A stretch of DNA of 32,000 nucleotides from Candidatus Electrothrix yaqonensis (GCA_047651235.1 CP178758.1:660001-692000); one strand, 5' to 3'; positions 1,112 through 18,477 are shown, counted from the stretch's first letter. Numbers and translations are program-made. Notes: generated from the sequence alone by a model not told the origin.

Positions 1112-1188
1112 GGCGATGTAGCTCAGCCGGTTAGAGCGCACGGCTCATATCCGTGGTGTCCGGGGTTCAAGTCCCTGCATCGCCACCA
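1112..1188 (+). tRNA. tRNA with CAT anticodon (elongator tRNA-Met, or tRNA-Ile2 if lysidine-modified)
   Basis: 77 nt cloverleaf read by eye. Acceptor GGCGAUG/CAUCGCC; D-arm GCUCAGCCGGUUAGAGC; anticodon stem CACGG/CCGUG with loop CUCAUAU; T-arm CGGGG-UUCAAGU-CCCUG; encoded CCA. The G1-C72 pair argues against an initiator tRNA. Confidence 0.9.
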
Positions 1189-1964: not shown

Positions 1965-2393
1965 ATGACTGCAGCAAAACAAGGAGACAGCGTCAAAGTC
2001 CATTACACCGGTTCCCTGACGGACGGTACCCAGTTTGATTCTTCCGTGGGGGTTGATCCCTTGGAGTTCACCTTGGGCAGCGGCCAGGTAATCGCCGGTT
2101 TTGACGAGGCCATCACCGGTATGGAGCCGGGCGAGAAAAAGACAGTGACCATTTCGGCGGATAAGGCATACGGCCAGCGCAATGAAGAGATGGTCATCAA
2201 CGCGCCCCGTGACCAGGTGCCGGACAACATCACCCCTGAAGTGGGACAGCAGCTGCAGCTCTCCGGACCGAACAACCAGCCTATTATCGTCAAGGTCATT
2301 GAAGTGACAGACGAGCATATCCAGCTTGACGCCAACCCTCCCCTGGCTGGCAAAGACCTCACCTTTGATCTCGAACTGGTTTCTATTGCCTAA
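1965..2393 (+). CDS. FKBP-type peptidyl-prolyl cis-trans isomerase (SlyD/FkpB-like, with IF chaperone insert)
   Basis: 142 aa with VKVHYTGSLTDGTQFDSS...PLEFTLGSGQVIAGFDEAITGM...ANPPLAGKDLTFDLELV. AAGGAG Shine-Dalgarno 6 nt upstream. Confidence 0.9.
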   Translation: MTAAKQGDSVKVHYTGSLTDGTQFDSSVGVDPLEFTLGSGQVIAGFDEAITGMEPGEKKTVTISADKAYGQRNEEMVINAPRDQVPDNITPEVGQQLQLSGPNNQPIIVKVIEVTDEHIQLDANPPLAGKDLTFDLELVSIA

Positions 2394-2443
2394 TTTCCCG
2401 CCGGGGTGCTTTTCCCGGCTGCAGATACTTTCTTCAGCCCGGA

Positions 2444-4858
2444 TCATCCTCCGGGCGTTGCTTCCTTCTCCTGCCCTGTCAAAATCCAGCGCTGCAGCAG
2501 CGGCACCCGGAATGACCAACCGTTGTCCTCCTGCGCGAGGATTTCCTTGCGCACCAGCATGGATGCCGCCCTACCCGTCTCTTCGATCGGCTCCCGCTCC
2601 TCTGCCACCGCCCGGAGCAGCTTCCGCTGGGCGTCGTTGAGGGCATTCCAGAATTCATCAAAGTAATAATGCCCATGCTCAAAGGCGGCAGGGAGAATGG
2701 CCTCCACGTCGCCGGGCTGCACAGCTTTGGTTTTATTTCTGTTGAGGTGATCAACAGCTTCAGAGCAGAGGAGCTGGATGAGATAGGGCTGGCCCTGGGT
2801 GAGCTGCCAGACCGCCTCTGCCGCCCCATCCGGCCAGATTGCCGGGAAGTCCGGCACCGGGCGGCAGATCAGCTCCAGCGCATCGTTCTTGTCCAAGTAG
2901 CTTACGCGCAGACTGCGGGTGTTGATCAGGCAGTCGCTCCAGTGTGGGGTCAGCTCGTCCGGTGTGTGCGCCCCGGCAAAAAGGAGCTGCCAGCGGTCGC
3001 GGTGCTGGATCAGGTGGCGGAGGAAGTTAAGCGGGGCTTGGCTGCCGCTGGCAGTGACGATCTCCTCTATCCGCTCGAACTCGTCCAAGCAGAGCAGGAA
3101 GGTCTTGCTAGGCGCGGCCTGCTCGACCATATCTAACCAGCCGAGCAAGGCGGCGAACGGGTCGGTCTTTAGTTCTTCCTTGTCTGGGGGAGATAGACTC
3201 AAACGGTGTGTTGTATGGGCTGAGGCGGCAATCTGATCAGCAATGCCCTTGGCCAGACCATGCAGCGAGATAGACACTAACGCGCCTTGAAGGTCCACAA
3301 ACAAAGGCAGGATGTCCGAGGGCATCTGCCTGGGCAGGTAGCGCAGGGCCGAGCTTTTGCCGCTGCGCCGGTTGCCCTGCATGACCAGGGTGGGCGGCTG
3401 GGCCGAGAGCAGCAGGCTTTCGATCTGGTGGAAGAGGTCACGGCGGCCCTTGAACAGCCTCCCGGCCTTGTCCGGCTCCAGGGTCGGACCGGGCAGATAG
3501 ACCGGGGGAATCTCGTCGCTCTGTGCGGCCTGCTCGCGCAGAGTCTTGCGGGCGGTCTCCAGGATGCGCTGCCAGTGATCCAGCACCGCGCCAAGGGCGG
3601 TGGCCTCGCGGGCAGAGGCAGCGGCCAGGGCATTGCGCTGCTGGTCGATTCTGGCGCAGACCTTCTTCAGTCGCTCCTCCCTGCGAAATGGGGTGGTGGA
3701 GTTCAGGGCCGAGTCCGTGTCCTGGCTCAGGTCAAGGCAGGTGGTGATCTGCCCGGCCTGCTCAGCAGACAGCCAGTCCAGCTTCTTCCGCACCTCGGCA
3801 ATATCCTCTGCGCTCCAGCAGCGGCGGAACTCCTCTGCCGCAATGAGGAGCATGGCCTTGCTGGCGGCCTTCTGCTGATTGGTGGAGCTGATCAGGTGGT
3901 TCACAGTCTGGCGGGCGGCGGCTTGGTTCTCCTGATATGCTTTGGCGATGAGGCCGGGCAGGAAAGGCATGGGCAGGATAAACTGATCGAACTGCGGAAA
4001 CAACAAGTCCAGTTTAGAGCAGGCTTGATTATTCGGAAATAGGAGATAAGGCAGCTTCAGCAGCCAGAAGCAAAGACGCAGCACGCCGACAATAAAGGAA
4101 ACACCGAATGCTATAGTAGTTACTTGCTCGACCGTTGTTGCAACGGTCATTGCTCCAAACATAACTACAAATACTGTGCTACCCATCACTATAACCACTG
4201 AGCCTGCAACGACCTCCGCCCCGCTGAACACTGCTGCAAACGCTCTGCCGACCGCCACGCCGACCGCTACGCCGACTGTCACACCTCCTGCAATGCCGAC
4301 TGTTGTGCTTCCTGCAATACCAATCGTTGCACCGACTGCCGCGCCTATTGCTACACCACCTACAGCACTGACCGCTCCATCAATCGCTATACTGACGATT
4401 ATGCTGACCGCCACAATGATTGCTGCTTCATTGAGAAAATTATATTTGAGCATAAATATGATTGGCAGGGTTATTACCGAAATTATTACCGGCCAAACTG
4501 CTCTTTTCCTTACTATCCGAAGAAAAATTTGGCCCAGCAGCCATCCAAGGGAAAAAAAATAGCTCAACCACCAGTTGAGCTGCAAGACAGCAGTTCCGAC
4601 AATAAGCCGCGAAATACTGTCTGCCAGCGGCGCATACAGAAATATCGTCGCAATAGGCACCAGTGCAGTCAGCCACCAGACCTGATCATCGTAACGCTTC
4701 AGACGCGGATTTGCCCGTGTCTCCGCAGAACGGCGGTAGATGTTGTCGTTGTACGGATCAGTGATTTCCGGGCAAATCTCCCGTACATACTGCTTCAGGG
4801 TGTAGGGCTTGAAATAAATCCAGTACAGCAGCTGGAGGCATTCTTTGATGTATTGCAT
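2444..4858 (-). CDS. Membrane-anchored P-loop NTPase: N-terminal multi-TM / Gly-zipper-like module + Arch_ATPase/STAND-like NTPase + wHTH-like tail
   Basis: 804-aa ORF. The N-terminal ~270 aa are hydrophobic and include AVSAVGGVAIGAAVGATIGIAGSTTVGIAGGVTVGVAVGVAVG. C-terminal half has FKGRRDLF, Walker A QGNRRSGKSS, Walker B LLCLDEFERI, GQPYLIQLL and a C-terminal helix-rich tail. AAGGGA SD upstream. Confidence 0.8.
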   Translation of the reverse strand: MQYIKECLQLLYWIYFKPYTLKQYVREICPEITDPYNDNIYRRSAETRANPRLKRYDDQVWWLTALVPIATIFLYAPLADSISRLIVGTAVLQLNWWLSYFFSLGWLLGQIFLRIVRKRAVWPVIISVITLPIIFMLKYNFLNEAAIIVAVSIIVSIAIDGAVSAVGGVAIGAAVGATIGIAGSTTVGIAGGVTVGVAVGVAVGRAFAAVFSGAEVVAGSVVIVMGSTVFVVMFGAMTVATTVEQVTTIAFGVSFIVGVLRLCFWLLKLPYLLFPNNQACSKLDLLFPQFDQFILPMPFLPGLIAKAYQENQAAARQTVNHLISSTNQQKAASKAMLLIAAEEFRRCWSAEDIAEVRKKLDWLSAEQAGQITTCLDLSQDTDSALNSTTPFRREERLKKVCARIDQQRNALAAASAREATALGAVLDHWQRILETARKTLREQAAQSDEIPPVYLPGPTLEPDKAGRLFKGRRDLFHQIESLLLSAQPPTLVMQGNRRSGKSSALRYLPRQMPSDILPLFVDLQGALVSISLHGLAKGIADQIAASAHTTHRLSLSPPDKEELKTDPFAALLGWLDMVEQAAPSKTFLLCLDEFERIEEIVTASGSQAPLNFLRHLIQHRDRWQLLFAGAHTPDELTPHWSDCLINTRSLRVSYLDKNDALELICRPVPDFPAIWPDGAAEAVWQLTQGQPYLIQLLCSEAVDHLNRNKTKAVQPGDVEAILPAAFEHGHYYFDEFWNALNDAQRKLLRAVAEEREPIEETGRAASMLVRKEILAQEDNGWSFRVPLLQRWILTGQEKEATPGG

Positions 4859-4887
4859 GGAAAATCCCTTGTGACTAGCAAGCAGAC

Positions 4888-4897
4888 AGTGTACACT
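4888..4897. promoter_or_regulatory. Perfect 10-bp palindrome AGTGTACACT in the divergent promoter region upstream of vapB (candidate operator)
   Basis: Palindrome abuts a TATGAT -10-like hexamer (4897-4902), 35 nt upstream of the vapB start. Confidence 0.35.
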
Positions 4898-4931
4898 ATG
4901 ATAGTGCTAAATCTTAATCGGGAGATACGAG

Positions 4932-5150
4932 ATGATAAAAAACATAACCCTCAGTGCTGATGAACGCCTGATCTTCAAGGCCAGAAAAAAAGCTCAATCC
5001 GAACATACAACCCTGAATGCCCGCTTCCGTCAATGGCTTGACAGGTATACCGCTTCCAATATTGACAGTGAATACGACCGTCTTATGGATCAGTTAAGCC
5101 ATGTAAGGGCGAGCGGTCCCTACAGCAGAGACGAGTTGAATGAGCGATAA
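4932..5150 (+). CDS. vapB: Antitoxin (RHH/CopG-like, VapB-type)
   Basis: 72 aa with N-terminal ITLSADERLIFKARKKAQSEHTTLNARFRQWL, an RHH-antitoxin-like pattern. Overlaps the downstream PIN gene by 11 nt. GGGAGA SD. Confidence 0.6.
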   Translation: MIKNITLSADERLIFKARKKAQSEHTTLNARFRQWLDRYTASNIDSEYDRLMDQLSHVRASGPYSRDELNER

Positions 5151-5571
5151 ATATTTTATTGATACCAATATCTTTGTCTACTCTTTTCAACGGGATGAAC
5201 CAGAAAAACAAAGTGTTGCCCAGAAGCTGATTCGGAATGCCCTGAAGGAACAGACAGGCTGCATAAGTTCTCAGGTCATACAAGAATTTCTGAATGTTGC
5301 CACGAAAAAGCTCAACCCTCCCCTGTCGCATCAGGAAAGTCTCAAATATCTGGATACAGTGCTGGCACCATTGTGCGAAGTGTTCAGCTCACTTGAACTG
5401 TACCATAAAACTATAGAAATCACAGAGCGATGGAAATACACTCTATATGATTCTATGATTATTACTGCGGCCTTGCAGGCCAATTGTGCCGTCTTGTATA
5501 CAGAGGATCTGCACCACGGGCAGCAGGTCGAATCTCTTGTTATTGAGAATCCTTTCCGTGCCGGATCATGA
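5140..5571 (+). CDS. vapC: PIN-domain ribonuclease toxin (VapC-type)
   Basis: 143 aa. Acidic PIN residues in the usual order: FIDTNIFVY (D), VIQEF (E), LYDSMII (D), YTEDL (D). Confidence 0.85.
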   Translation: MSDKYFIDTNIFVYSFQRDEPEKQSVAQKLIRNALKEQTGCISSQVIQEFLNVATKKLNPPLSHQESLKYLDTVLAPLCEVFSSLELYHKTIEITERWKYTLYDSMIITAALQANCAVLYTEDLHHGQQVESLVIENPFRAGS

Positions 5572-5592
5572 TAAGAGACAGTCTATCATCTT

Positions 5593-6624
5593 CTATTTCA
5601 CCAGCTTGCTCAAAAAATCAAGAATGTCCTTTACCGGTAATTGCCCGCTCCACCACGCATACCCCACCGCAAGAACAACGACCAGCACCAGAACACAGGA
5701 CATAATCGGTTTGCAATCGGTAGCATGTTTGGGCAACTTGGGAAATATTTTCAGTATCCAGCCTGCGTATCGTTTCCACACACTGACCGGTCTGATCCGG
5801 CACCGCTGCTCCTCAAACAGCTTCCTTGCCCACTTTGTCTTTTTCCCGAACTGCCGGGTCTCGAACAGAGCCGTCGCAGCCAGCTGGAGCAGATAGGGAT
5901 GCCTGCCGCCCCATTTCCGGGCTAACCGCTGATCTTTCGGCTCCAGAGCAGGTGGGGCATGAGCGGGCAGACACACCAGCTTCTCCGCTTCTTCCTCGGT
6001 CAGCTCACCCAATTTCAGCACATGGCCGAGATTGAAAAAGGCTGAGGTGAGCTGGTGCTCCCCGGCACAGACATCTAGGGATTTCCGGCTGGCCGGGATC
6101 AGCATCAGCCGGTTGGCATTCATGAATCCCCGCAGCCGATCAAAAAAGCTGTCTGTAAACTGCTCCTGCCGCTTGAGCAGCTTTTCGAATTCATCCAGAC
6201 AGAACACCGGCAGCAGATCCTGGGCAGCAAAGGCATCCAGTAGCTTGCTGAAGTCCTTATGCGTTCCGGGAAGAGGAGACAGCGCGGAACGCAGCGGTCC
6301 GATCTGGGCAACCGCAGGCCGGTCCAGCGCACCTGCCAGCAGCCGATAAAAATCCGCTTCTGTTGGCGGGTCATCTTCCTGCAGATCAATATACACCACC
6401 ACGAATCGGGCCGGGTTGTTCACCCGCTGTTCCCAGGTCTGAAAAAAATGATAGAGCAGCGAGGACTTGCCGATGCGGCGTTCGCCGATCACATTGACGC
6501 TGACCGGCTGGGCACCGCTCATCCGGCGGGCAAGGAAACGCAATTCCTCTTTCCGTCCGACAAATAGACCGGGATCAGTGATCTTCGGTCCGGCAACAAA
6601 GGGGCATGAACTTGATGCGTGCAT
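5593..6624 (-). CDS. P-loop NTPase (Arch_ATPase/STAND-like) with a C-terminal transmembrane anchor
   Basis: Start reassigned to ATG at 6624 (GGGAGAA SD; MHASSSCPFVAGP...). The longer 401-aa ORF overlaps the upstream GT2 gene. Motifs LFVGRKEELRFL, Walker A GERRIGKSS, Walker B VFCLDEFEKL, GRHPYLLQLA, and a C-terminal TM helix IMSCVLVLVVVLAVGYAWW. Confidence 0.8.
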   Translation of the reverse strand: MHASSSCPFVAGPKITDPGLFVGRKEELRFLARRMSGAQPVSVNVIGERRIGKSSLLYHFFQTWEQRVNNPARFVVVYIDLQEDDPPTEADFYRLLAGALDRPAVAQIGPLRSALSPLPGTHKDFSKLLDAFAAQDLLPVFCLDEFEKLLKRQEQFTDSFFDRLRGFMNANRLMLIPASRKSLDVCAGEHQLTSAFFNLGHVLKLGELTEEEAEKLVCLPAHAPPALEPKDQRLARKWGGRHPYLLQLAATALFETRQFGKKTKWARKLFEEQRCRIRPVSVWKRYAGWILKIFPKLPKHATDCKPIMSCVLVLVVVLAVGYAWWSGQLPVKDILDFLSKLVK

Positions 6625-6655
6625 GATGTTCTCCCTGTAAAATGGGTCGTAAAGT

Positions 6656-7522
6656 TTACCCCGCAGCCGGAGTATTTTCCCTTTCCCGGCCTGACAAGAA
6701 CCGCTCCGGCAGGGCAAGATAGCGTTCCCCCTCCTCCGGCCTGCCGTGTTTGATGCAGCCGTTCCCGTAAATATTGCATTTTTTCTCCAGCTCCGCAACA
6801 GCCAGACCGTACTGCTCCACAGTCAGCGGGCACTCTTCCAACAGGTGACAGAGGGAGCGGATGCGCCAAGTGTCCATACCCAGCCGGTGCACGACTGAGA
6901 GTTGATCCGGCCGGCCGCCGTCCTTCAGGGTCAGCGGTTCATCAATCAGAAGAAACTCTTCTTTTCTGCTCACCCGTAGCCAGAGGTCATAGTCTTCGCA
7001 GCAGGGCATGTCTTCGGCAAAGGTGCCGTAGCGCGTGAACAGCTCTCGGCGCACCATGACTGTGGACATGCCTACCACGCACATGGCCAAGGCGCGGCGG
7101 AAGATGTTCCCGTGGGGCGGGGTGTGTTTCTTTTTCTGATTCACCTGCCTGCCGTGCCGAAACCACAGTTCCTTGGTGTGTGAAATCAGATACTGCGGCG
7201 CTGCCTGCATGGCCCTGAACTGCAGGTCCAGCTTGCGCGGCGCCCAGCGGTCATCGGAATCAAGAAAGCAGAGGAGATCGTACCGGGCCTCGGTAATGCC
7301 TCGGTTCCGGGCGGCAGAGGCTCCCTGGTTCTGGTGAAAAAAATACCGGATCGGTACGTTGCTGCAGGCGGCAAGCCGCCGGATCAGCTCCGGGGTCGCA
7401 TCGGTGGAGCCGTCATCGATCACCAGAATTTCGGCGCAGGCAAGGGTCTGCTTCTGCACCGAGGTGATGGCCTGTTCAAGAAAGTTAGCCCGGTTATAGG
7501 TGGGGATAATGACGGAGATCAT
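6656..7522 (-). CDS. Family 2 glycosyltransferase
   Basis: 288 aa starting MISVIIPTYNRANFLEQAITSVQKQT...ILVIDDGSTDAT...FLDSDD, the GT2 (GT-A) signature. Confidence 0.9.
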   Translation of the reverse strand: MISVIIPTYNRANFLEQAITSVQKQTLACAEILVIDDGSTDATPELIRRLAACSNVPIRYFFHQNQGASAARNRGITEARYDLLCFLDSDDRWAPRKLDLQFRAMQAAPQYLISHTKELWFRHGRQVNQKKKHTPPHGNIFRRALAMCVVGMSTVMVRRELFTRYGTFAEDMPCCEDYDLWLRVSRKEEFLLIDEPLTLKDGGRPDQLSVVHRLGMDTWRIRSLCHLLEECPLTVEQYGLAVAELEKKCNIYGNGCIKHGRPEEGERYLALPERFLSGRERENTPAAG

Positions 7523-7800
7523 TTGCCGTGTTTTTTTCAGGCGGATTTGCCGGAATTCATTTTTGCCGCAATGGGCTGCAACGGTACCCGATAACCAATT
7601 CAGTTTTCTGAGCTACACAAGGATGCCTATAACTCCCTTCCACGTCTTTGCTGCAGAAAAACTGTCGTGCAATCCAAGGTATAATGGAGTATGATGTTCA
7701 TAGGAGCACTATGCAATAACATTCACAAAGGAGTATGCAGAATCACTGGCTGTCAGACGGGTCAATAATCCGGACAAACAACTATACGAGGGAGGACATC

Positions 7801-8100
7801 ATGAAAAAAAAGATACTACTGATAACTCTGGCTGCTGCCAGTATCGGCATGTTGAGTGGCTGCTACTACTATCCACCGACGAACTCGGCAGTTGTCGTTC
7901 CCGCACCGTCACGACCGAGTGCGGCTGTTGTCGTTCCTGCTCCGGCTCCGACAGTTGTTGTGCCAGCACCTCGTTCTTACCGTTATTCCTATCCTAGGCG
8001 TTATCGAACGTATCGAAAATATAGAAGATACAGAGCGCCATCACCTCCATCATCTCATTATCGTTATCGTTCCTATCCCAAGCGCCACCGGAGATATTGA
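7801..8100 (+). CDS. Small lipoprotein with VVVPAP repeats and an Arg/Tyr-rich tail
   Basis: Start moved to ATG 7801 (GGGAGG SD). Signal peptide with lipobox: MKKKILLITLAAASIGMLSG|C. Three (V)VVPAP units, then RSYRYSYPRRYRTYRKYRRYR...HYRYRSYPKRHRRY. Confidence 0.7.
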   Translation: MKKKILLITLAAASIGMLSGCYYYPPTNSAVVVPAPSRPSAAVVVPAPAPTVVVPAPRSYRYSYPRRYRTYRKYRRYRAPSPPSSHYRYRSYPKRHRRY

Positions 8101-11298: not shown

Positions 11299-11454
11299 CA
11301 ATCCGCCGAAACGGGGTTCACCCGATTCTTTCACTCCTGCCGTAATCATTCTCCTCCTTCCGTCCTGAAGAAAGAGCGTTTCTGCCGGAAGCGTTTACAG
11401 ACGGACGGCTTGGATATTATTCAACGCAACAACATAACGGAGGAAGAGAAGTGA
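11296..11454 (+). CDS. Short leader ORF (52 aa), possibly translationally coupled to the downstream gene
   Basis: GGGAGG SD 6 nt upstream of ATG 11296. Its stop overlaps the GTG start of the next gene (GTGA at 11451-11454). No recognisable domain. Confidence 0.35.
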   Translation: MQSAETGFTRFFHSCRNHSPPSVLKKERFCRKRLQTDGLDIIQRNNITEEEK

Positions 11455-14411
11455 AGACACATTGGTTTAAAACAGTACCGGTGACAGCCGGTCTGCTGCT
11501 GGGCTTCGGCCTGACGGCTGGCCCGGCCTTTAGCGAGGTGCAGTTTACGGACAGCGGGCAGATTCTGGGAAGCAATTATACTTGGGAGGCGGTGCTGGGT
11601 GATCTGGATGGTGACGGCGATCTAGATGCTTATTGTGCGAACGCTGGAACTCAACCCGACAAAGTATGGCTGAACGACGGAACGGGTATCTTCAGCGATA
11701 GTGGGCAGGCTCTTACTGGCAATCTGCACAGTGGTGCTGTAGCACTGGGCGATCTGGACGGTGACGGTGATCTGGATGCCTTTGTAGGTAAATCAAACTA
11801 CCTTACAGTGTTGATGAATGGCGGGACAGGCAGTTTTTCAGACACGGGACAGCGATTGAACAGTTACGGCACTCACGCTGTGGCACTGGGTGATGTGGAC
11901 GGCGACGGTGATCTGGATGCTTTTGCCGGAAGGTGGGGGCAGCCTACTCATGTATGGATGAATGACGGATCAGGCATTTTCACCGACAGCGGCCAGGAGC
12001 TGGGCGATTCGGGATCACTTGATTGTGATATCGAATTGAGGGATTTAGACGGTGACGGCGATTTGGATGCTTTCGCTGCGAATCATGGGACAAGCGGCAA
12101 TCCGGTCTGGCTGAACGACGGTGCCGGAAATTTTTCTCTCCACGCAAAGCTGGGCAACTTAAGCAGTCATAGCATTGCCTTGGGCGACTTGGATGGCGAC
12201 GGTAATCTGGATGCCTTTGTCGGAAATGTATATGATCCGGATCAAATATGGTTGGGAGACGGAGCAGGCAATTTTATCGATAGCGGCCAGAATCTTGGCG
12301 ACACAATGAGCCTTGAGGTTTCCCTGGCAGACCTAGACAGCGACGGCGATCTGGATGCTTATGTGGCGACCGGCAATATCTGGACCCGGCGTAGCGAGAC
12401 CGACAAGATTTGGCTGAACGACGGATCAGGTGTCTTTTCCGACAGCGGACTGCCTTTGGCATATGCGGCCAACAGTTCCATCCCGTTAGGTGATCTGGAT
12501 GGCGACGGTGATTTGGATGCCTTCAGTGCGGCCTATGGGAACAATGTGGCCTACGGGAACAATACGGTTTGGATGAATGAGTCGGATGGAGTTATTGTGT
12601 ATTACCCGCTGGACGGCAATGCGGAAGAAGCAAATAACAACGCATATGACGGGACAATTCACGGTGCCACGCCAACGACGGATCGTTTTGGTCAGACTGA
12701 CGGGGCAATGCACTTTGACGGAGATGACTATATTGTCACACCGTTTAATATGAGTCAGGAATTTTCGCCTTACGCTCCGGTAACCGTTTCTTTCTGGTTC
12801 AAAGTTGATCCGTCAGACGCTGCTCAGCAAAATACTCTCATTTTTGGTGGAGCCCCTGGCGGAGGCCCAGATTTTATGGCGGGGTTAAACAATGGTATTG
12901 TGAGGAGCAGACTGTACGGCGGTGCTCCGTTAGGAGAATCGGATACAACGTATGCCGATGGAGAATGGCACTATGTAGTATTTGGAAATTACGGCAGCGG
13001 AATCTATGATACCTATTTCTATATTGATGGGCAAAGGCAATCGAACACTCCTTCATTATATTATAATGGAAACGATGTCGGCGGTTACAATCGGGAGGAA
13101 CAGCTTACACTAGGATGCAGGGTCTGGAATTTTACGACTCCAAGTAATTTTTTTATCGGTGATATTGATGACTTTAAAATTTTCTATAATCCTTCACAAC
13201 AGGATGCCGACGAAGATGGTGTTGCAGATGACGAGGACAACTGTCCGAACGTAGCCAATGCAGATCAATCTGATGAAGACAATGACGGCATCGGTGATGC
13301 CTGCGATACCTGCGGGCAGGATCCGGAGAATGATGCGGACGGCGACGGCGTTTGCGGGGATGTGGATGTCTGTCCGGGACATAACGATGCTGTGAATGCT
13401 GACGGCGACAGTGCGCCGGACGGCTGCGATGCCTGCCCGAACGACCCGCAGAACGATGCGGACGGCGACGGAATCTGCGGGGATGTGGATACCTGCCCGA
13501 ACGATGCCGACAACGATGCGGATAACGACGGAATCTGCGGAGATATGGATACCTGTCCAAACGATGCTGCTAACGATGCGGACAACGACGGTGTCTGCGG
13601 GGATGTGGATGCCTGCCCGAACGATGCGGACAACGATGCGGACGGTGACGGAACCTGCGGAGATGTGGATACCTGCGCAAATGATCCTGATAACGATGCG
13701 GACGGCGACGGAGTCTGCGGAGATGTGGATATCTGCCCGAACGATGCTGCTAACGATGCGGACAGCGACGGAATCTGCGGAGATGTGGATGCCTGTCCGA
13801 ACGATGCGGATAACGATGCCGACAATGACGGAATCTGCGGAGATGTGGATGTCTGCCTGCTTGGTGATGATAATCTGGACACAGACGGCGACACAGTTGC
13901 CGATGACTGCGATGTATGTCCACTGGATATCGAGAATGATGCAGACGGTGACGGCATTTGTGAATCGGATGACAACTGCCCGACTCTGGCCAACACCAAT
14001 CAGTCGAACGTGGACGGCGACGAGTACGGCGACGCCTGCGAGCCTGACAATGACGATGACGGCGTGATTGATGATAACGACAATTGCCCGCTGGACGTCA
14101 ATGCCGATCAGGCGGACTACGACGGTGACGGTGTCGGCGACGTCTGCGATGCGGACACGGACGGCGACAACGTGATTGATGCGGATGATGTGTGTCTGGA
14201 AACGGCTGTGGGCGCACCGGTACTTGCCAACGGCTGCTCAGTGGATCAGGAATGCGTGTGTGAGGCGAAATGGAAGAACCACGGTGCCTATGTACGATGT
14301 AATGCACATGCCTGTGAGGATCTGGTTGATGCAGGTCTGCTCACCGAAGCGGAGAAGGACGCGATCATGTCCGAGGTCGGAGAATCTGACTGCGGGCATA
14401 AGAAGAAATAA
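11451..14411 (+). CDS. Large secreted protein: FG-GAP/VCBS repeats + LamG (concanavalin-A-like lectin) domain + thrombospondin type-3 Ca-binding repeats
   Basis: GTG start with GGAGGAAG SD and signal peptide (TAGLLLGFGLTAGPAFS). About 8 repeats centred on GDLDGDGDLDA(F/Y) and WLNDG(S/T)G.F. LamG-like block (GAMHFDGDDYIV...VSFWFKV...GEWHYVVF...IGDIDDFKIFY). More than 12 D-x-D-x-DG-x-C/D TSP3-like repeats. Confidence 0.9.
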   Translation: MKTHWFKTVPVTAGLLLGFGLTAGPAFSEVQFTDSGQILGSNYTWEAVLGDLDGDGDLDAYCANAGTQPDKVWLNDGTGIFSDSGQALTGNLHSGAVALGDLDGDGDLDAFVGKSNYLTVLMNGGTGSFSDTGQRLNSYGTHAVALGDVDGDGDLDAFAGRWGQPTHVWMNDGSGIFTDSGQELGDSGSLDCDIELRDLDGDGDLDAFAANHGTSGNPVWLNDGAGNFSLHAKLGNLSSHSIALGDLDGDGNLDAFVGNVYDPDQIWLGDGAGNFIDSGQNLGDTMSLEVSLADLDSDGDLDAYVATGNIWTRRSETDKIWLNDGSGVFSDSGLPLAYAANSSIPLGDLDGDGDLDAFSAAYGNNVAYGNNTVWMNESDGVIVYYPLDGNAEEANNNAYDGTIHGATPTTDRFGQTDGAMHFDGDDYIVTPFNMSQEFSPYAPVTVSFWFKVDPSDAAQQNTLIFGGAPGGGPDFMAGLNNGIVRSRLYGGAPLGESDTTYADGEWHYVVFGNYGSGIYDTYFYIDGQRQSNTPSLYYNGNDVGGYNREEQLTLGCRVWNFTTPSNFFIGDIDDFKIFYNPSQQDADEDGVADDEDNCPNVANADQSDEDNDGIGDACDTCGQDPENDADGDGVCGDVDVCPGHNDAVNADGDSAPDGCDACPNDPQNDADGDGICGDVDTCPNDADNDADNDGICGDMDTCPNDAANDADNDGVCGDVDACPNDADNDADGDGTCGDVDTCANDPDNDADGDGVCGDVDICPNDAANDADSDGICGDVDACPNDADNDADNDGICGDVDVCLLGDDNLDTDGDTVADDCDVCPLDIENDADGDGICESDDNCPTLANTNQSNVDGDEYGDACEPDNDDDGVIDDNDNCPLDVNADQADYDGDGVGDVCDADTDGDNVIDADDVCLETAVGAPVLANGCSVDQECVCEAKWKNHGAYVRCNAHACEDLVDAGLLTEAEKDAIMSEVGESDCGHKKK
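13311..13853 (+). repeat. In-frame 60-bp (20-aa) tandem repeat array encoding CPNDADNDADxDGxCGDVDx
   Basis: One unit at 13311-13370, one degenerate unit, then seven contiguous 60-bp units at 13434-13853. Confidence 0.85.
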
Positions 14412-17474: not shown

Positions 17475-18477
17475 TAATTCTACTTTGGCACTCACAAAGG
17501 CTGTGGTAATAATTTGCAATTCGGTTGTTTCTCATATGCGAAATCAATCGAAGCTTGCCTCTTTTCATGCCGTTGACGAAGCTGTCTTATAACTTCATCT
17601 TCGTTTACATCTCGACGTGGAAGAATTGACTTGAGTAATGTTGTTATATCAGCGCAACTCAATAACGGGACACCGACTTGATGGTATAATCGTTGCTCGA
17701 CCATAAACAACATGGCCATCATGACCATAGTCATATGATGATGCCAAGCCAGCCATCCCCGAGCCTTAGCCTTAAGACAACGTTCCTTGTCATCCGTCCA
17801 GCTTTTCGGTAAATACAGCCGACAGTCGATCGGCGTTGAAAAGCGACCATATCCCAAAGTTGCAAACACTACTACTTGACAGTTGTCGGTTTTACCAAGC
17901 TGCCCGCACCATTGACGAGAAACCCCAACAGACATTTTACCCTTTTTGGGTATCCCGGATTCATCAATAAAAAGAGCGCTATCTTCCTTTCCTCCAAAAA
18001 TGTTATCCGCATCTTTAGCTACGTGGTTGTTTACAGGACGCCAATCCCAGTTCGATTCGGAAAGAAAATACTGGAGGGGCTCATATTTAACGCCCGGAAC
18101 CTTTTCCTCCATACGTTCCATGTTTTTTTGTCAGACTGGAATAAACCTTTCAAGTATTGGAATGCTTTATCTGACAAACTTACCGTATGTCTCTTAAAAA
18201 AATGATGATATCTTTCGTGAAAAGACGTAAGTTGCCGGGCGATGCCGGTCAACTCAAAGAATTTGTCATGGGGACTTCTTTTTTCGGGGCTGGGAGCGTT
18301 CATAAAAAGAATAAAGTTATAATCAGGGCGATTGACGGGTATTTTTTTGATAGCTGTTATCAGGTGCTATCTTGATCAAAAAGCGATAAAATCTTCCTAA
18401 TGAAAGATACAACTTTATCCGGATATTGCAAGAAGTTTTTACAAATAGATCAAAAGGTTATGGTTGACAAAGTAGAA
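17475..18477 (-). mobile_element. Defective IS701-family-like insertion sequence, copy A
   Basis: 1003 bp shared with 27626-28628 at constant offset 10,151, roughly 97% identity by eye. Imperfect terminal IRs: TAATTCTACTTTG... at the left and ...CAAAGTAGAA at the right. Boundaries +/- 3 bp. AT-richer than the surroundings. Confidence 0.8.
17492..18303 (-). pseudogene. IS701-family (COG5659-type) DDE transposase, frameshifted and internally deleted
   Basis: ORFs 18303->18031 and 18121->17492 join by a -1 shift at an A7 run (T7 at 18123-18129 on the + strand). The junction reads ...AFQYLKGLFQSDKK|NMERMEEKVPGVKYEPLQYFLSESNWDWRPV. LFIDESG (first D) is present. The sequence then passes from YLPKSWTDDKERCLKAKA directly to RGWLAWHHHMTMVMMAMLF, so the central catalytic region seems to be missing. 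Confidence 0.7.

Follow-up and report, generated by a model that had tools for sequence, protein, structure and literature searches.

A predicted doubly membrane-anchored NTPase pair with a tandem-repeat-encoded glycine-zipper array, found almost only in filamentous bacteria

The window analyzed here, a stretch of 32,000 nucleotides from Candidatus Electrothrix yaqonensis (GCA_047651235.1 CP178758.1:660001-692000), carries on its minus strand an ATG-initiated open reading frame (ORF) for an 804-residue protein that joins a predicted polytopic membrane module to a P-loop NTPase. The initial annotation, made from the sequence alone, had read this protein as a self-contained fusion of a sensor NTPase to a membrane effector. 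We find instead that it lacks a C-terminal sensor and is one half of an obligate two-gene operon, in which the gene directly upstream encodes a shorter, paralogous and tail-anchored NTPase. The two products are referred to below as the large and small subunits (Table 1). The large gene is real beyond chance, with at least 200 relatives in the genomes of GTDB species, and its ATG was accepted as the start because orthologues from cable bacteria begin with the same N-terminus, MQY[IV]KECLQLLYW. Sequence searching recovered 70 homologues of the large subunit, among them full-length ones in cable bacteria, cyanobacteria and Beggiatoa. For the small gene, the mechanical ORF (5593..6798, minus strand) extends to a TTG at 6798, and the start was set at the ATG at 6624 because orthologues and the database protein P0071 place it there. 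A VapBC cassette on the opposite strand splits the two genes in this window.

Conservation in the large subunit was evaluated in a 29-sequence orthologue alignment (A1), where the cytoplasmic parts are ~40% identical across phyla, and an AlphaFold2 (AF2) model was built on 29 orthologues. The model has a mean predicted local distance difference test score (pLDDT) of 75, and residues 300-800 mostly exceed 80. Inspection of the model reveals linker helices at ~279-446, a five-stranded nucleotide-binding domain at 490-652, a helical lid at 657-708 and a winged-helix tail at 715-800 with a beta-hairpin at 774-783. The helical linker and the wHTH-like tail claimed in the initial annotation are therefore both present in the model, and the P-loop motifs lie where it had placed them (FKGRRDLF at residue 469, GNRRSGKSS at 495, CLDEFE at 590 and GQPYLIQLL at 689). 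Residues invariant in A1 are distributed along the cytoplasmic parts of the chain. They comprise Y12, W13, F16, P18 and P30 in the N-terminal segment (two helices, pLDDT ~80); L283, D291, P296, Q328, A332, W362, W429 and L433 in the all-helical linker (pLDDT 80-90); G495, R497, R498, G500, K501 and S503 in Walker A; L588, L591, D592, E593 and E595 in Walker B; and Q690, P691, Q695 and C698 in the lid. Residues 1-57 are probably cytoplasmic, being rich in lysine and arginine ahead of the first transmembrane (TM) helix, as the positive-inside rule would predict. The G+C content steps within the locus, from 0.60-0.63 over 2001-4000, which holds the cytoplasmic part of the large gene, to 0.48 over 4001-6000, which holds its membrane part, the VapBC genes and the 3' end of the small gene.

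Table 1 Features of the two-gene module in the window, with positions counted from the first nucleotide of the window
Feature	Position	Strand	Evidence
Large subunit gene: membrane module, helical linker, NTPase and winged helix	2444..4858	-	ORF, homologues, alignment A1, AF2
Conserved N-terminal segment, probably cytosolic, aa 1-57; motif ECLxLLYWxYFKPYTL, then basic stretch	4688..4858	-	Alignment A1, AF2
Polytopic hydrophobic membrane region (predicted), aa 58-272	4043..4687	-	Hydropathy, AF2 helices
Glycine-zipper array, aa 167-204, hypervariable core of the membrane region	4247..4360	-	GxxxG statistics, 12-bp tandem repeat
Juxtamembrane motif LPPxFDQLIxLPLPF...EAYQENxxAARxTIxYLIxSTNQQK and helical linker, aa 273-460	3479..4042	-	Alignment A1, AF2
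P-loop nucleotide-binding domain, aa 461-655, opening with FKGRxDLF	2894..3478	-	Sub-threshold Pfam, AF2, Foldseek
Walker A GNRRSGKSS, aa 495-503	3350..3376	-	Alignment A1
Walker B LLCLDEFE, aa 588-595	3074..3097	-	Alignment A1
Helical lid with GxP-type motif GQPYLIQLLC, aa 656-712	2723..2893	-	Alignment A1, AF2
Winged-helix-like C-terminal domain, aa 713-804	2447..2722	-	AF2: helices 715-770, beta-hairpin 774-783, helix 786-800
VapB-like (4932-5150) and PIN/VapC (5140-5571) cassette between the subunit genes	4932..5571	+	PIN 1.7e-11
Small subunit gene: nSTAND1-type NTPase with C-terminal TM anchor, 343 aa from ATG at 6624	5593..6624	-	Pfam, orthologues, AF2
Small-subunit Walker A GERRIGKSS, aa 47-55	6460..6486	-	G47, G52, K53, S54, S55 invariant in 30 orthologues
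Small-subunit Walker B CLDEFE, aa 142-147	6184..6201	-	C142, D144, F146 invariant in 30 orthologues
Small-subunit C-terminal TM helix (tail anchor), aa 305-325	5650..5712	-	Hydrophobic stretch in five orthologues; AF2 helix 305-325

The membrane topology of the large subunit was assigned from hydropathy and the positive-inside rule. Kyte-Doolittle windows at or above 1.6 run nearly unbroken over residues 60-274, which bears out the N-terminal multi-TM module that had been proposed, and AF2 places helices in this region at residues 51-87, 96-117, 122-138, 144-167, 189-210 and 241-273. The run of small residues with GxxxG spacing to which the initial annotation drew attention (GGVAIGAAVGATIGIAGSTTVGIAGGVTVGVAVGVAVG) spans 38 residues (167-204) inside a charge-free stretch of 44 (161-204), and its spacing holds up statistically. 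Across residues 58-272, GxxxG occurs 8 times versus 2.1 expected (z 4.6; 1 of 2000 shuffles reaches 8) and [GAS]xxx[GAS] occurs 28 times versus 17.9 expected from shuffles. Orthologues share the GxxxG enrichment, with a median z of 6.9 (n = 39).

The array also varies strongly between orthologues. Three parts of the large subunit are strongly conserved, namely the N-terminus (ECLxLLYWxYFKPYTL), the last helix (LGVLRxYFWLPEL) and the juxtamembrane region (LPPxFDQLIxLPLPF ... STNQQK), and the stretch between the conserved membrane-module parts measures 157 to 507 residues across orthologues, with a median of 270. The DNA coding for the glycine zipper is an in-frame 12-bp tandem repeat, with 2.5 copies at 4247-4276 of the window, 13.8 copies (90% match) at another locus, L086, and 26.5 copies in Nostoc linckia; one lineage has an 18-bp unit instead, coding (ALALAG)n. 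Among Nostoc proteins whose cytoplasmic parts are 90-96% identical, the membrane region differs by up to 67 residues and the glycines number 27 versus 50. Glycine zippers (GxxxGxxxG) occur in the VacA N-terminus, Abeta and the hydrophobic core of PrP. The array described here resembles glycine-zipper channel segments in its small-xxx-small spacing within a hydrophobic segment and in its Gly/Ala/Val composition. It differs from them in being far longer (up to ~26 tetrapeptide units), in being encoded by a DNA repeat and in forming part of a polytopic module that is joined to an NTPase.

A profile of residues 1-345 was searched against 1.84 billion representative proteins and returned 1288 matches, of which the best 150 were listed. 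Nearly all of these 150 are full-length orthologues or fragments, and the many matches of 445-460 residues that stop within the linker look like contig-end truncations. No fusion of the N-terminal module to another enzyme appears among the best 150 of the 1288 matches, and the idea of the module as a swappable effector was rejected on that ground.

We next consider the family to which the NTPase belongs. Pfam matches of the window's large subunit are below threshold (AAA_16, 9e-6; AAA_22, 5e-4), and no nSTAND1 (PF20703) match is seen at E ≤ 0.1. Over the 29 orthologues, matches at E ≤ 1e-3 (the level given for nSTAND1 and ATPase_2) number 25 for AAA_22, 18 for AAA_16, 14 for ORC-CDC6-like, 10 for ATPase_2 and 7 for nSTAND1, and four relatives (P0201, P0204, P0233 and P0282) reach 29.8-35.2 bits for nSTAND1 against a cutoff of 27.1. 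The PF01637 (ATPase_2/Arch_ATPase) cutoff of 33.2 bits is reached by neither subunit (large, no match; small, 19.6 bits), nor is the PF20702 (nSTAND2) cutoff of 24 bits (small, 16.5 bits, E 0.0055; large, no match). When PDB sequences were searched with a profile of the large-subunit family, nothing beyond a chance P-loop match emerged (3llu, E 0.31). When the model is compared with the PDB by Foldseek, 2qen ranks first (E 6e-8, target TM-score 0.68), followed by 2fna (4e-7, target TM-score 0.61) and then by ORC/Cdc6 and RuvB; Avs3 (8dgc) appears at rank 34 and NRC2 at rank 41, such that the closest solved structures are not STAND proteins. Measured against the STAND superfamily as defined by Leipe, Koonin and Aravind in 2004, the large subunit shows the Walker A and B motifs and the succession of nucleotide-binding domain, helical GxP-type lid and winged helix. 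The C-terminal superstructure-forming repeat sensor was found in neither subunit by AF2 and Pfam, as the large chain stops after the winged helix with no repeat-family Pfam matches and the small subunit ends in a TM helix. By sequence and model, the NTPase is best placed as an AAA+ protein of the ORC/Arch_ATPase/STAND neighbourhood, and the earlier label "STAND/Arch_ATPase-like" is accurate, with 2qen and 2fna as the best Foldseek matches.

The Arch_ATPase proteins PAB2304 (2qen) and SSO1545 (2fna), of family PF01637, share with the large subunit the F-x-G-R-x-x-E/D-L lead-in and an AAA+ core followed by a wHTH. Unlike the proteins described here, they are soluble archaeal proteins without a membrane module or a paired partner, and we know of no function assigned to either. 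Other placements of the NTPase were rejected. A KAP-family NTPase does not fit, since the hydrophobic segments all lie N-terminal of residue 275 and the NTPase (461-712) is uninterrupted; an ORC/Cdc6-type replication factor does not fit a pair whose members are both anchored in the membrane and whose smaller member has no winged helix; and a transposon AAA+ protein (TniB/TnsC/MuB) was dismissed because no transposase recurs beside the pair. The broader proposal that the pair is a transposition- or replication-type AAA+ system (TniB/TnsC/MuB- or ORC/Cdc6/DnaA-like) that is only incidentally membrane-bound is extremely improbable in our view. Weak Pfam matches to TniB and ORC-CDC6-like, together with Foldseek matches to ORC, TnsC, MuB and DnaA domain III, are what speak for it, but these structural matches reflect the shared AAA+ core only (query TM-scores 0.2-0.5). 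Neither Tn7-like genes nor transposases recur next to the pair, whose chromosomal position is stable, and the membrane anchoring and missing winged helix count against this proposal as well.

The small subunit is itself a member of nSTAND1 by Pfam, at 33.7 bits. Its NTPase is paralogous to that of the large subunit, with 27% identity by BLASTP (1e-7) and an hhalign value of 97.7% (E 2e-12). The AF2 model of the small subunit (pLDDT 86.7) consists of a nucleotide-binding domain and a lid, without a winged helix, and closes with a C-terminal TM helix; its best structural matches by Foldseek are ORC1/Cdc6, 2qen and 2fna. The tail anchor would be expected to hold the small subunit at the cytoplasmic face of the membrane.

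The small gene immediately precedes the large gene in 72 of the 73 distinct loci that could be assessed. Orthologues of 351-361 residues occupy this position on the same strand in Ca. Electrothrix communis, Ca. Electronema PJ, Cylindrospermum and Anabaena azotica, four genomes whose wider flanks are unrelated to each other. The genes abut or overlap, with a median of 63 nt from the small-gene stop to the LLYW motif of the large gene; two loci (L056 and L066) have the partner in overlapping reading frames, and the arrangement is retained in relatives that are only ~30% identical. The sole partnerless locus is that of a Pleurocapsa metagenome-assembled genome (MAG), where no small gene occurs within 6 kb upstream. 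This locus, together with an architecture that taken by itself suits a sensor NTPase and a membrane effector in one chain, is what could be said for a stand-alone, single-gene abortive-infection protein. The near-universal partner in abutting or overlapping genes, the lack of a sensor domain and the lack of any match in the defence catalogue make such a protein very improbable. A scan of 2300-6900 for promoters and terminators yielded nothing useful, with 4 promoter-like sites where shuffles predict 2.4 and 6 terminator-like sites where they predict 3.7. In Mastigocoleus testarum (L078, 4829-8388 and 8978-12606; also L081) the module is tandemly duplicated as small-large-small-large. This is the only multi-copy locus seen, and other loci usually hold one copy.

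The intergenic site of the module accepts insertions. In Ca. Electrothrix gigas (L009, ~5098-5734) the same VapBC cassette sits at the same site as in the window. VapBC was rejected as a component of the module, because few of the 58 loci with a measurable gap could fit an insert and the cassette was found only at these two. From the small-gene stop into the opening ~32 nt of the large gene, the DNA of the two loci is ~85-90% alike by eye, whereas the large proteins are only ~52% identical, a disparity that points to lateral exchange of recent date, or to site-specific insertion, among cable bacteria. The ~32 nt that open the large gene (ATGCAATACATCAAAGAATGCCTGCAACTGCT) are present three times in the Ca. 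Electrothrix gigas locus (~4595, 5005 and 5812), and behind at least two of these copies stands the same stretch of ~100 nt (TGTTAAAGAAGCCCCAGTGTTGAAAC...GGGACAGCACGAAAA); these repeats look like a small mobile element, akin to a miniature inverted-repeat transposable element (MITE), that duplicates its target. In Oscillatoria sp. SIO1A7 (L048, 4199-5182) a 327-residue ORF with a QQG[IL]QQG repeat stands between the small and large genes, and by eye its product resembles Rpn-family/PD-(D/E)XK transposase-like proteins.

To describe the distribution of the module, one genome per GTDB species was scanned, which yielded 200 relatives, and the best 80 were examined. They comprise 66 cyanobacteria, 7 cable bacteria/Desulfobulbaceae, 3 Beggiatoaceae (Parabeggiatoa, Thioploca), 3 Chloroflexota (Thermoflexus, Anaerolineales and one MAG) and 1 other bacterium. 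The named cyanobacteria belong to Nostocales, Microcoleus, Oscillatoria, Symploca, Coleofasciculus, Leptolyngbya, Pseudanabaena and Halomicronema, with one Pleurocapsa, and we take these genera to be trichome-forming except for the single Pleurocapsa. Among the best 80 of the 200 relatives, the named hosts are thus almost all from filamentous lineages, in four phyla, and named matches of the small subunit give the same picture. A neighbour-joining tree of the C-terminal 500 residues of the large subunit places the window protein with Ca. Electronema and gathers the cable bacteria into one clade that splits Electronema from Electrothrix as in the taxonomy. The Chloroflexota stand beside the cable bacteria, and the Beggiatoaceae lie inside cyanobacterial diversity. 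The shape of the tree suggests a few old transfers between phyla, after which the gene was passed on vertically. That filamentous gliding bacteria share genes is already known (PMC1951784; PMC6390638), and neither of these two papers was found to mention the large- or small-subunit family.

A link to conflict systems comes from the small subunit. About 23 of the 120 listed small-subunit homologues carry N-terminal extensions of 100-230 residues, in which TIR_2 (P0150, P0153 and P0161), bDLD1 (P0123 and P0138) and EAD7 (P0160) are found above Pfam thresholds. The Chloroflexota small subunits share a common helical extension with a weak EAD11 match (E 0.017). Each TIR-bearing partner is followed by a large subunit with overlapping stop and start codons (profile scores 1022 and 798 bits). 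At the Chloroflexota MAG locus L056, a long small-subunit ORF (484-2013) adjoins the large gene, and the bDLD1-bearing P0138 can be assigned to the same two-gene arrangement indirectly, as it is equated with this locus through a shared contig size of 7,894 nt. TIR, Death-like and EAD domains form the adaptor and effector vocabulary of NTP-dependent conflict systems in multicellular prokaryotes, in which STAND-type conflict systems are enriched (PMC7159879, PMC8195603). TIR, bDLD1 and EAD7 on the partner are hallmarks of conflict systems.

We then asked how the pair compares with systems already described. Avs and bNACHT proteins are single-gene and tripartite, bind phage proteins through large C-terminal sensors, typically reside in defence islands and have been validated in E. 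coli, and the module here shares none of these traits. Plant paired and helper NLR (nucleotide-binding and leucine-rich-repeat) resistosomes, fungal NWD2/HET-S and bacterial Bell/BASS-NLR systems combine adjacent genes with a membrane-inserting executor that is activated by NTPase oligomerization, and in multicellular organisms NLR-type gene pairs sacrifice one cell to protect its kin. The likeness to these pairs is one of functional analogy only, with no detectable sequence relationship. Their executor is a soluble coiled-coil or HeLo domain that inserts on activation, whereas the candidate here is an integral-membrane glycine-zipper array. What the module may have in common with Avs/AVAST, bNACHT and the members of a 2026 STAND survey (PMC13581612) is the use of NTP-driven oligomerizing switches with N-terminal effectors; TM is among the domain labels in the figures of that survey.

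Closer parallels exist for individual parts of the module. The nSTAND1 counter-invader systems (PMC8195603; PF20703) share the NTPase clade of its small subunit and of many large-subunit orthologues, though not of the window's large subunit by Pfam match, as well as the N-terminal TIR, bDLD1 and EAD7 variants and the multicellular hosts. Their C-terminal FGS, lectin or repeat sensor is absent here, and unlike them the module has two paralogous NTPases per operon, both predicted to be membrane-anchored, and a polytopic glycine-zipper module. The nSTAND2 operon (PMC8195603, section 15, Fig. 6C) likewise holds two adjacent paralogous STAND-type NTPase genes and is predicted to form a hetero-multimer. 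One of its partners has eroded NTP-binding motifs and bears GT4 or HEPN effectors, and the operon is described as mobile, with no membrane anchoring described; in contrast, the pair here has both sets of Walker motifs intact, no GT4 or HEPN, two membrane-anchored partners and a stable locus. The EACC1-caspase pair (PMC7159879) is similar in being a two-gene, membrane-associated and multicellular-enriched system with a small-residue or glycine patch in its TM helix. It differs in pairing a single-TM EACC1 with a caspase, in having no paired NTPases and in occurring mainly in actinobacteria. No account of the gene pair was found in the literature searched, which included PMC10907252 and PMC10580974 besides the papers cited here, and where the nSTAND2 operon and the EACC1-caspase pair are the nearest published systems. 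The parts are therefore known (an nSTAND1-like NTPase, TIR/Death/EAD adaptors and a glycine zipper) and stand in an arrangement that was not found described, namely a paired, doubly membrane-anchored module with a minisatellite-encoded TM array that is found almost only in filamentous bacteria.

The reading we prefer, to which we give just short of an even chance, is that the pair forms a hetero-oligomeric, NLR-like membrane switch that permeabilizes a compromised filament cell. In its favor stand the constancy of the gene pair, the paralogy and invariant Walker residues of the two NTPases, their Arch_ATPase- and ORC-like fold, the GxxxG-enriched and hypervariable membrane array, the conflict-type domains on partner homologues, the filamentous hosts and the published precedents of STAND systems in multicellular prokaryotes and of a paired-STAND operon. 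Both subunits keep intact Walker A and B motifs. Upon a trigger, the small and large subunits would come together, in a nucleotide-dependent manner, as a hetero-oligomer on the inner side of the membrane, and oligomerization would gather the glycine-zipper helices to form a pore or lesion, thereby depolarizing the cell. The depolarized cell would then be sacrificed, or isolated from the remainder of the filament, a logic like that of NLRs and resistosomes, and in some lineages the TIR, bDLD1 or EAD7 domain of the small subunit may deploy or recruit further effectors. Hetero-oligomerization, pore formation, cell death and the nature of the trigger are steps that we infer. A wider formulation is possible, though doubtful. 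In that case, the module would be a bacterial counterpart of paired or helper NLRs restricted to filamentous multicellular bacteria, in which the minisatellite-encoded array is driven into a pore or amyloid-like lesion and the trichome cell is killed or sealed, and it would have been exchanged horizontally among cable bacteria, cyanobacteria, Beggiatoaceae and Chloroflexota and then retained vertically as a near-core gene.

Several observations weigh against a permeabilizing switch, beginning with the membrane module. A few orthologues are glycine-poor, with 0 GxxxG in L048 and 3 each in L055 and L057, and the glycine-rich part of the AF2 model (154-247) has a pLDDT of ~30. Neither subunit has a recognizable C-terminal sensor domain in sequence or model. 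Two giant relatives, P0313 (1819 residues) and P0294 (1473 residues), have a duplicated membrane module with a WD40 propeller between membrane segments. The C-terminus of P0313 is the same NTPase as in the large subunit, and the propeller, which follows a single TM pass, might be periplasmic. These insertions fit a sensing or transducing membrane module better than an effector. The same two-gene NLR-like module can accordingly be read in the opposite sense, with the membrane module as a sensor or transducer of membrane or periplasmic perturbation (depolarization, envelope damage or phage entry) and the output delivered via the small-subunit TIR, Death-like or EAD domains or other partners. The part of a conflict protein that is hypervariable is usually its sensor, and here it is the repeat-encoded membrane array that varies. 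Effector-type domains are found on the small and not on the large subunit, and a role as membrane sensor has been proposed for the glycine-patch TM helix of EACC1 (Kaur et al., PMC7159879). However, most versions of the module, including that of the window, have no enzymatic effector on either subunit, which leaves the membrane module as the only candidate output. Long GxxxG arrays are reportedly known mainly from channel-forming segments, and the WD40 variants are rare, at 2 of the 150 listed representatives. We consider the sensor or transducer role rather unlikely.

The genomic setting of the module provides further points of this kind. At least 25 Nostocales loci have common flanks (an ABC ATPase, YacP, BlaI/BlaR-like, rmlACD, psbA and ClpB), and the surroundings in the window are housekeeping in character, with groEL, tRNA-Met, FKBP, GT2, rhodanese, ClpB and a hybrid-cluster protein. 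When 135 non-redundant flanking proteins were scanned with PADLOC and the 25 most-hit families reported, no family was matched by more than 3 of the 135, and defence-type genes were sporadic; repeated matches were to two cytosine methyltransferases, AbiLi, mad2/mad3 and two PDC candidates. Neither PADLOC-DB v2 nor NCBIfam gave a match for the large subunit, in agreement with the initial annotation, which had recognized no named system. The only PADLOC-DB v2 match of the small subunit covers 42 residues of PDC-S27 (E 1.6e-4). A scan of IMG/VR viral contigs found no relatives, and tblastn against plasmids gave only NTPase-only matches, 28% identical, on Acinetobacter plasmids. The locus is atypical of defence islands. 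Of the neighbourhoods seen, the one with the clearest defence character, which speaks for a conflict link, is that of L090 (5310-9576), where a divergent pair (30% identity) is followed by DUF433, a helix-turn-helix protein, a PD-(D/E)XK nuclease and a Piwi-domain protein (pAgo). Loci usually hold one copy, inheritance looks vertical within the cable bacteria, and the module looks more like a core gene than a typical shuffling defence gene.

These same features would suit a pair of membrane AAA+/ORC-like ATPases with no part in conflict, which serves the cell biology of trichome-forming bacteria, for example at septa or cell-cell junctions, in membrane remodelling, in breaking filaments or in the coordination of gliding. 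The filamentous hosts in four phyla, the mostly single copy, the tree that divides the cable bacteria as taxonomy does, the Nostocales synteny, the lack of phage and plasmid copies in the searches above, the lack of a PADLOC match for the large subunit and the strong conservation of the cytoplasmic parts between phyla all argue in its favor. In contrast, fusion of the partner to TIR, bDLD1 or EAD7 marks conflict or cell-death systems and not housekeeping ATPases, and the partner belongs to nSTAND1. Repeat-driven hypervariability in length would be unusual in a structural machine, inserts between the two genes are tolerated, and the flanking families include no conserved third gene that ties the pair to septal or motility machinery. 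We regard this alternative as unlikely. For the conflict-system idea raised in the initial annotation, the outcome is mixed, such that the partner domains and the nSTAND1 assignment speak for it while the absence of defence islands and of a PADLOC match speaks against it. Consistent placement of homologues in housekeeping operons, which had been named as a finding that would count against the idea, is borne out in part, as the flanks are stable, mostly housekeeping and syntenic in Nostocales, and are not defence islands.

Other features of the window lie outside the two-gene module. A tRNA-Met gene (CAT; 1112-1188, plus strand) stands just downstream of the groEL 3' end and ~1.2 kb from the 3' end of the large gene, and it is possibly an integration landmark. 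Further along, a 986-residue protein encoded at 11451-14411 (plus strand) contains FG-GAP repeats, Laminin_G_3 and thrombospondin type 3 repeats and is probably a large surface or adhesion protein. A 209-residue ORF at 17492-18121 (minus strand) has a partial match to a DDE_5 transposase (profile positions 31-150 of 272) and is probably the remnant of an insertion sequence. The 121-residue ORF at 7735-8100 (plus strand) encodes a lipoprotein-like signal (…LSGC), repeated VVVPAP units and a very basic tail rich in tyrosine and arginine (YRYRSYPKRHRRY).

Should the pair prove to be an ATPase machine for trichome biology, it would be a new filament-specific membrane machine common to distant phyla, which would also be worth knowing. 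If the reading as an NLR-like switch is correct, the module would represent a compact, experimentally tractable two-gene cell-sacrifice or membrane-alarm switch that tracks multicellular filamentous growth in four phyla, with cable bacteria and heterocystous cyanobacteria among its hosts. It would then allow a direct test of whether regulated cell death of the NLR-like kind evolves together with multicellularity in bacteria. A coding tandem repeat that builds a membrane-embedded executor or sensor would be an unusual form of TM-segment diversification. The module would also provide a molecular handle on how a filament copes with a compromised cell, for example in necridia or in the filament breaks of cable bacteria.

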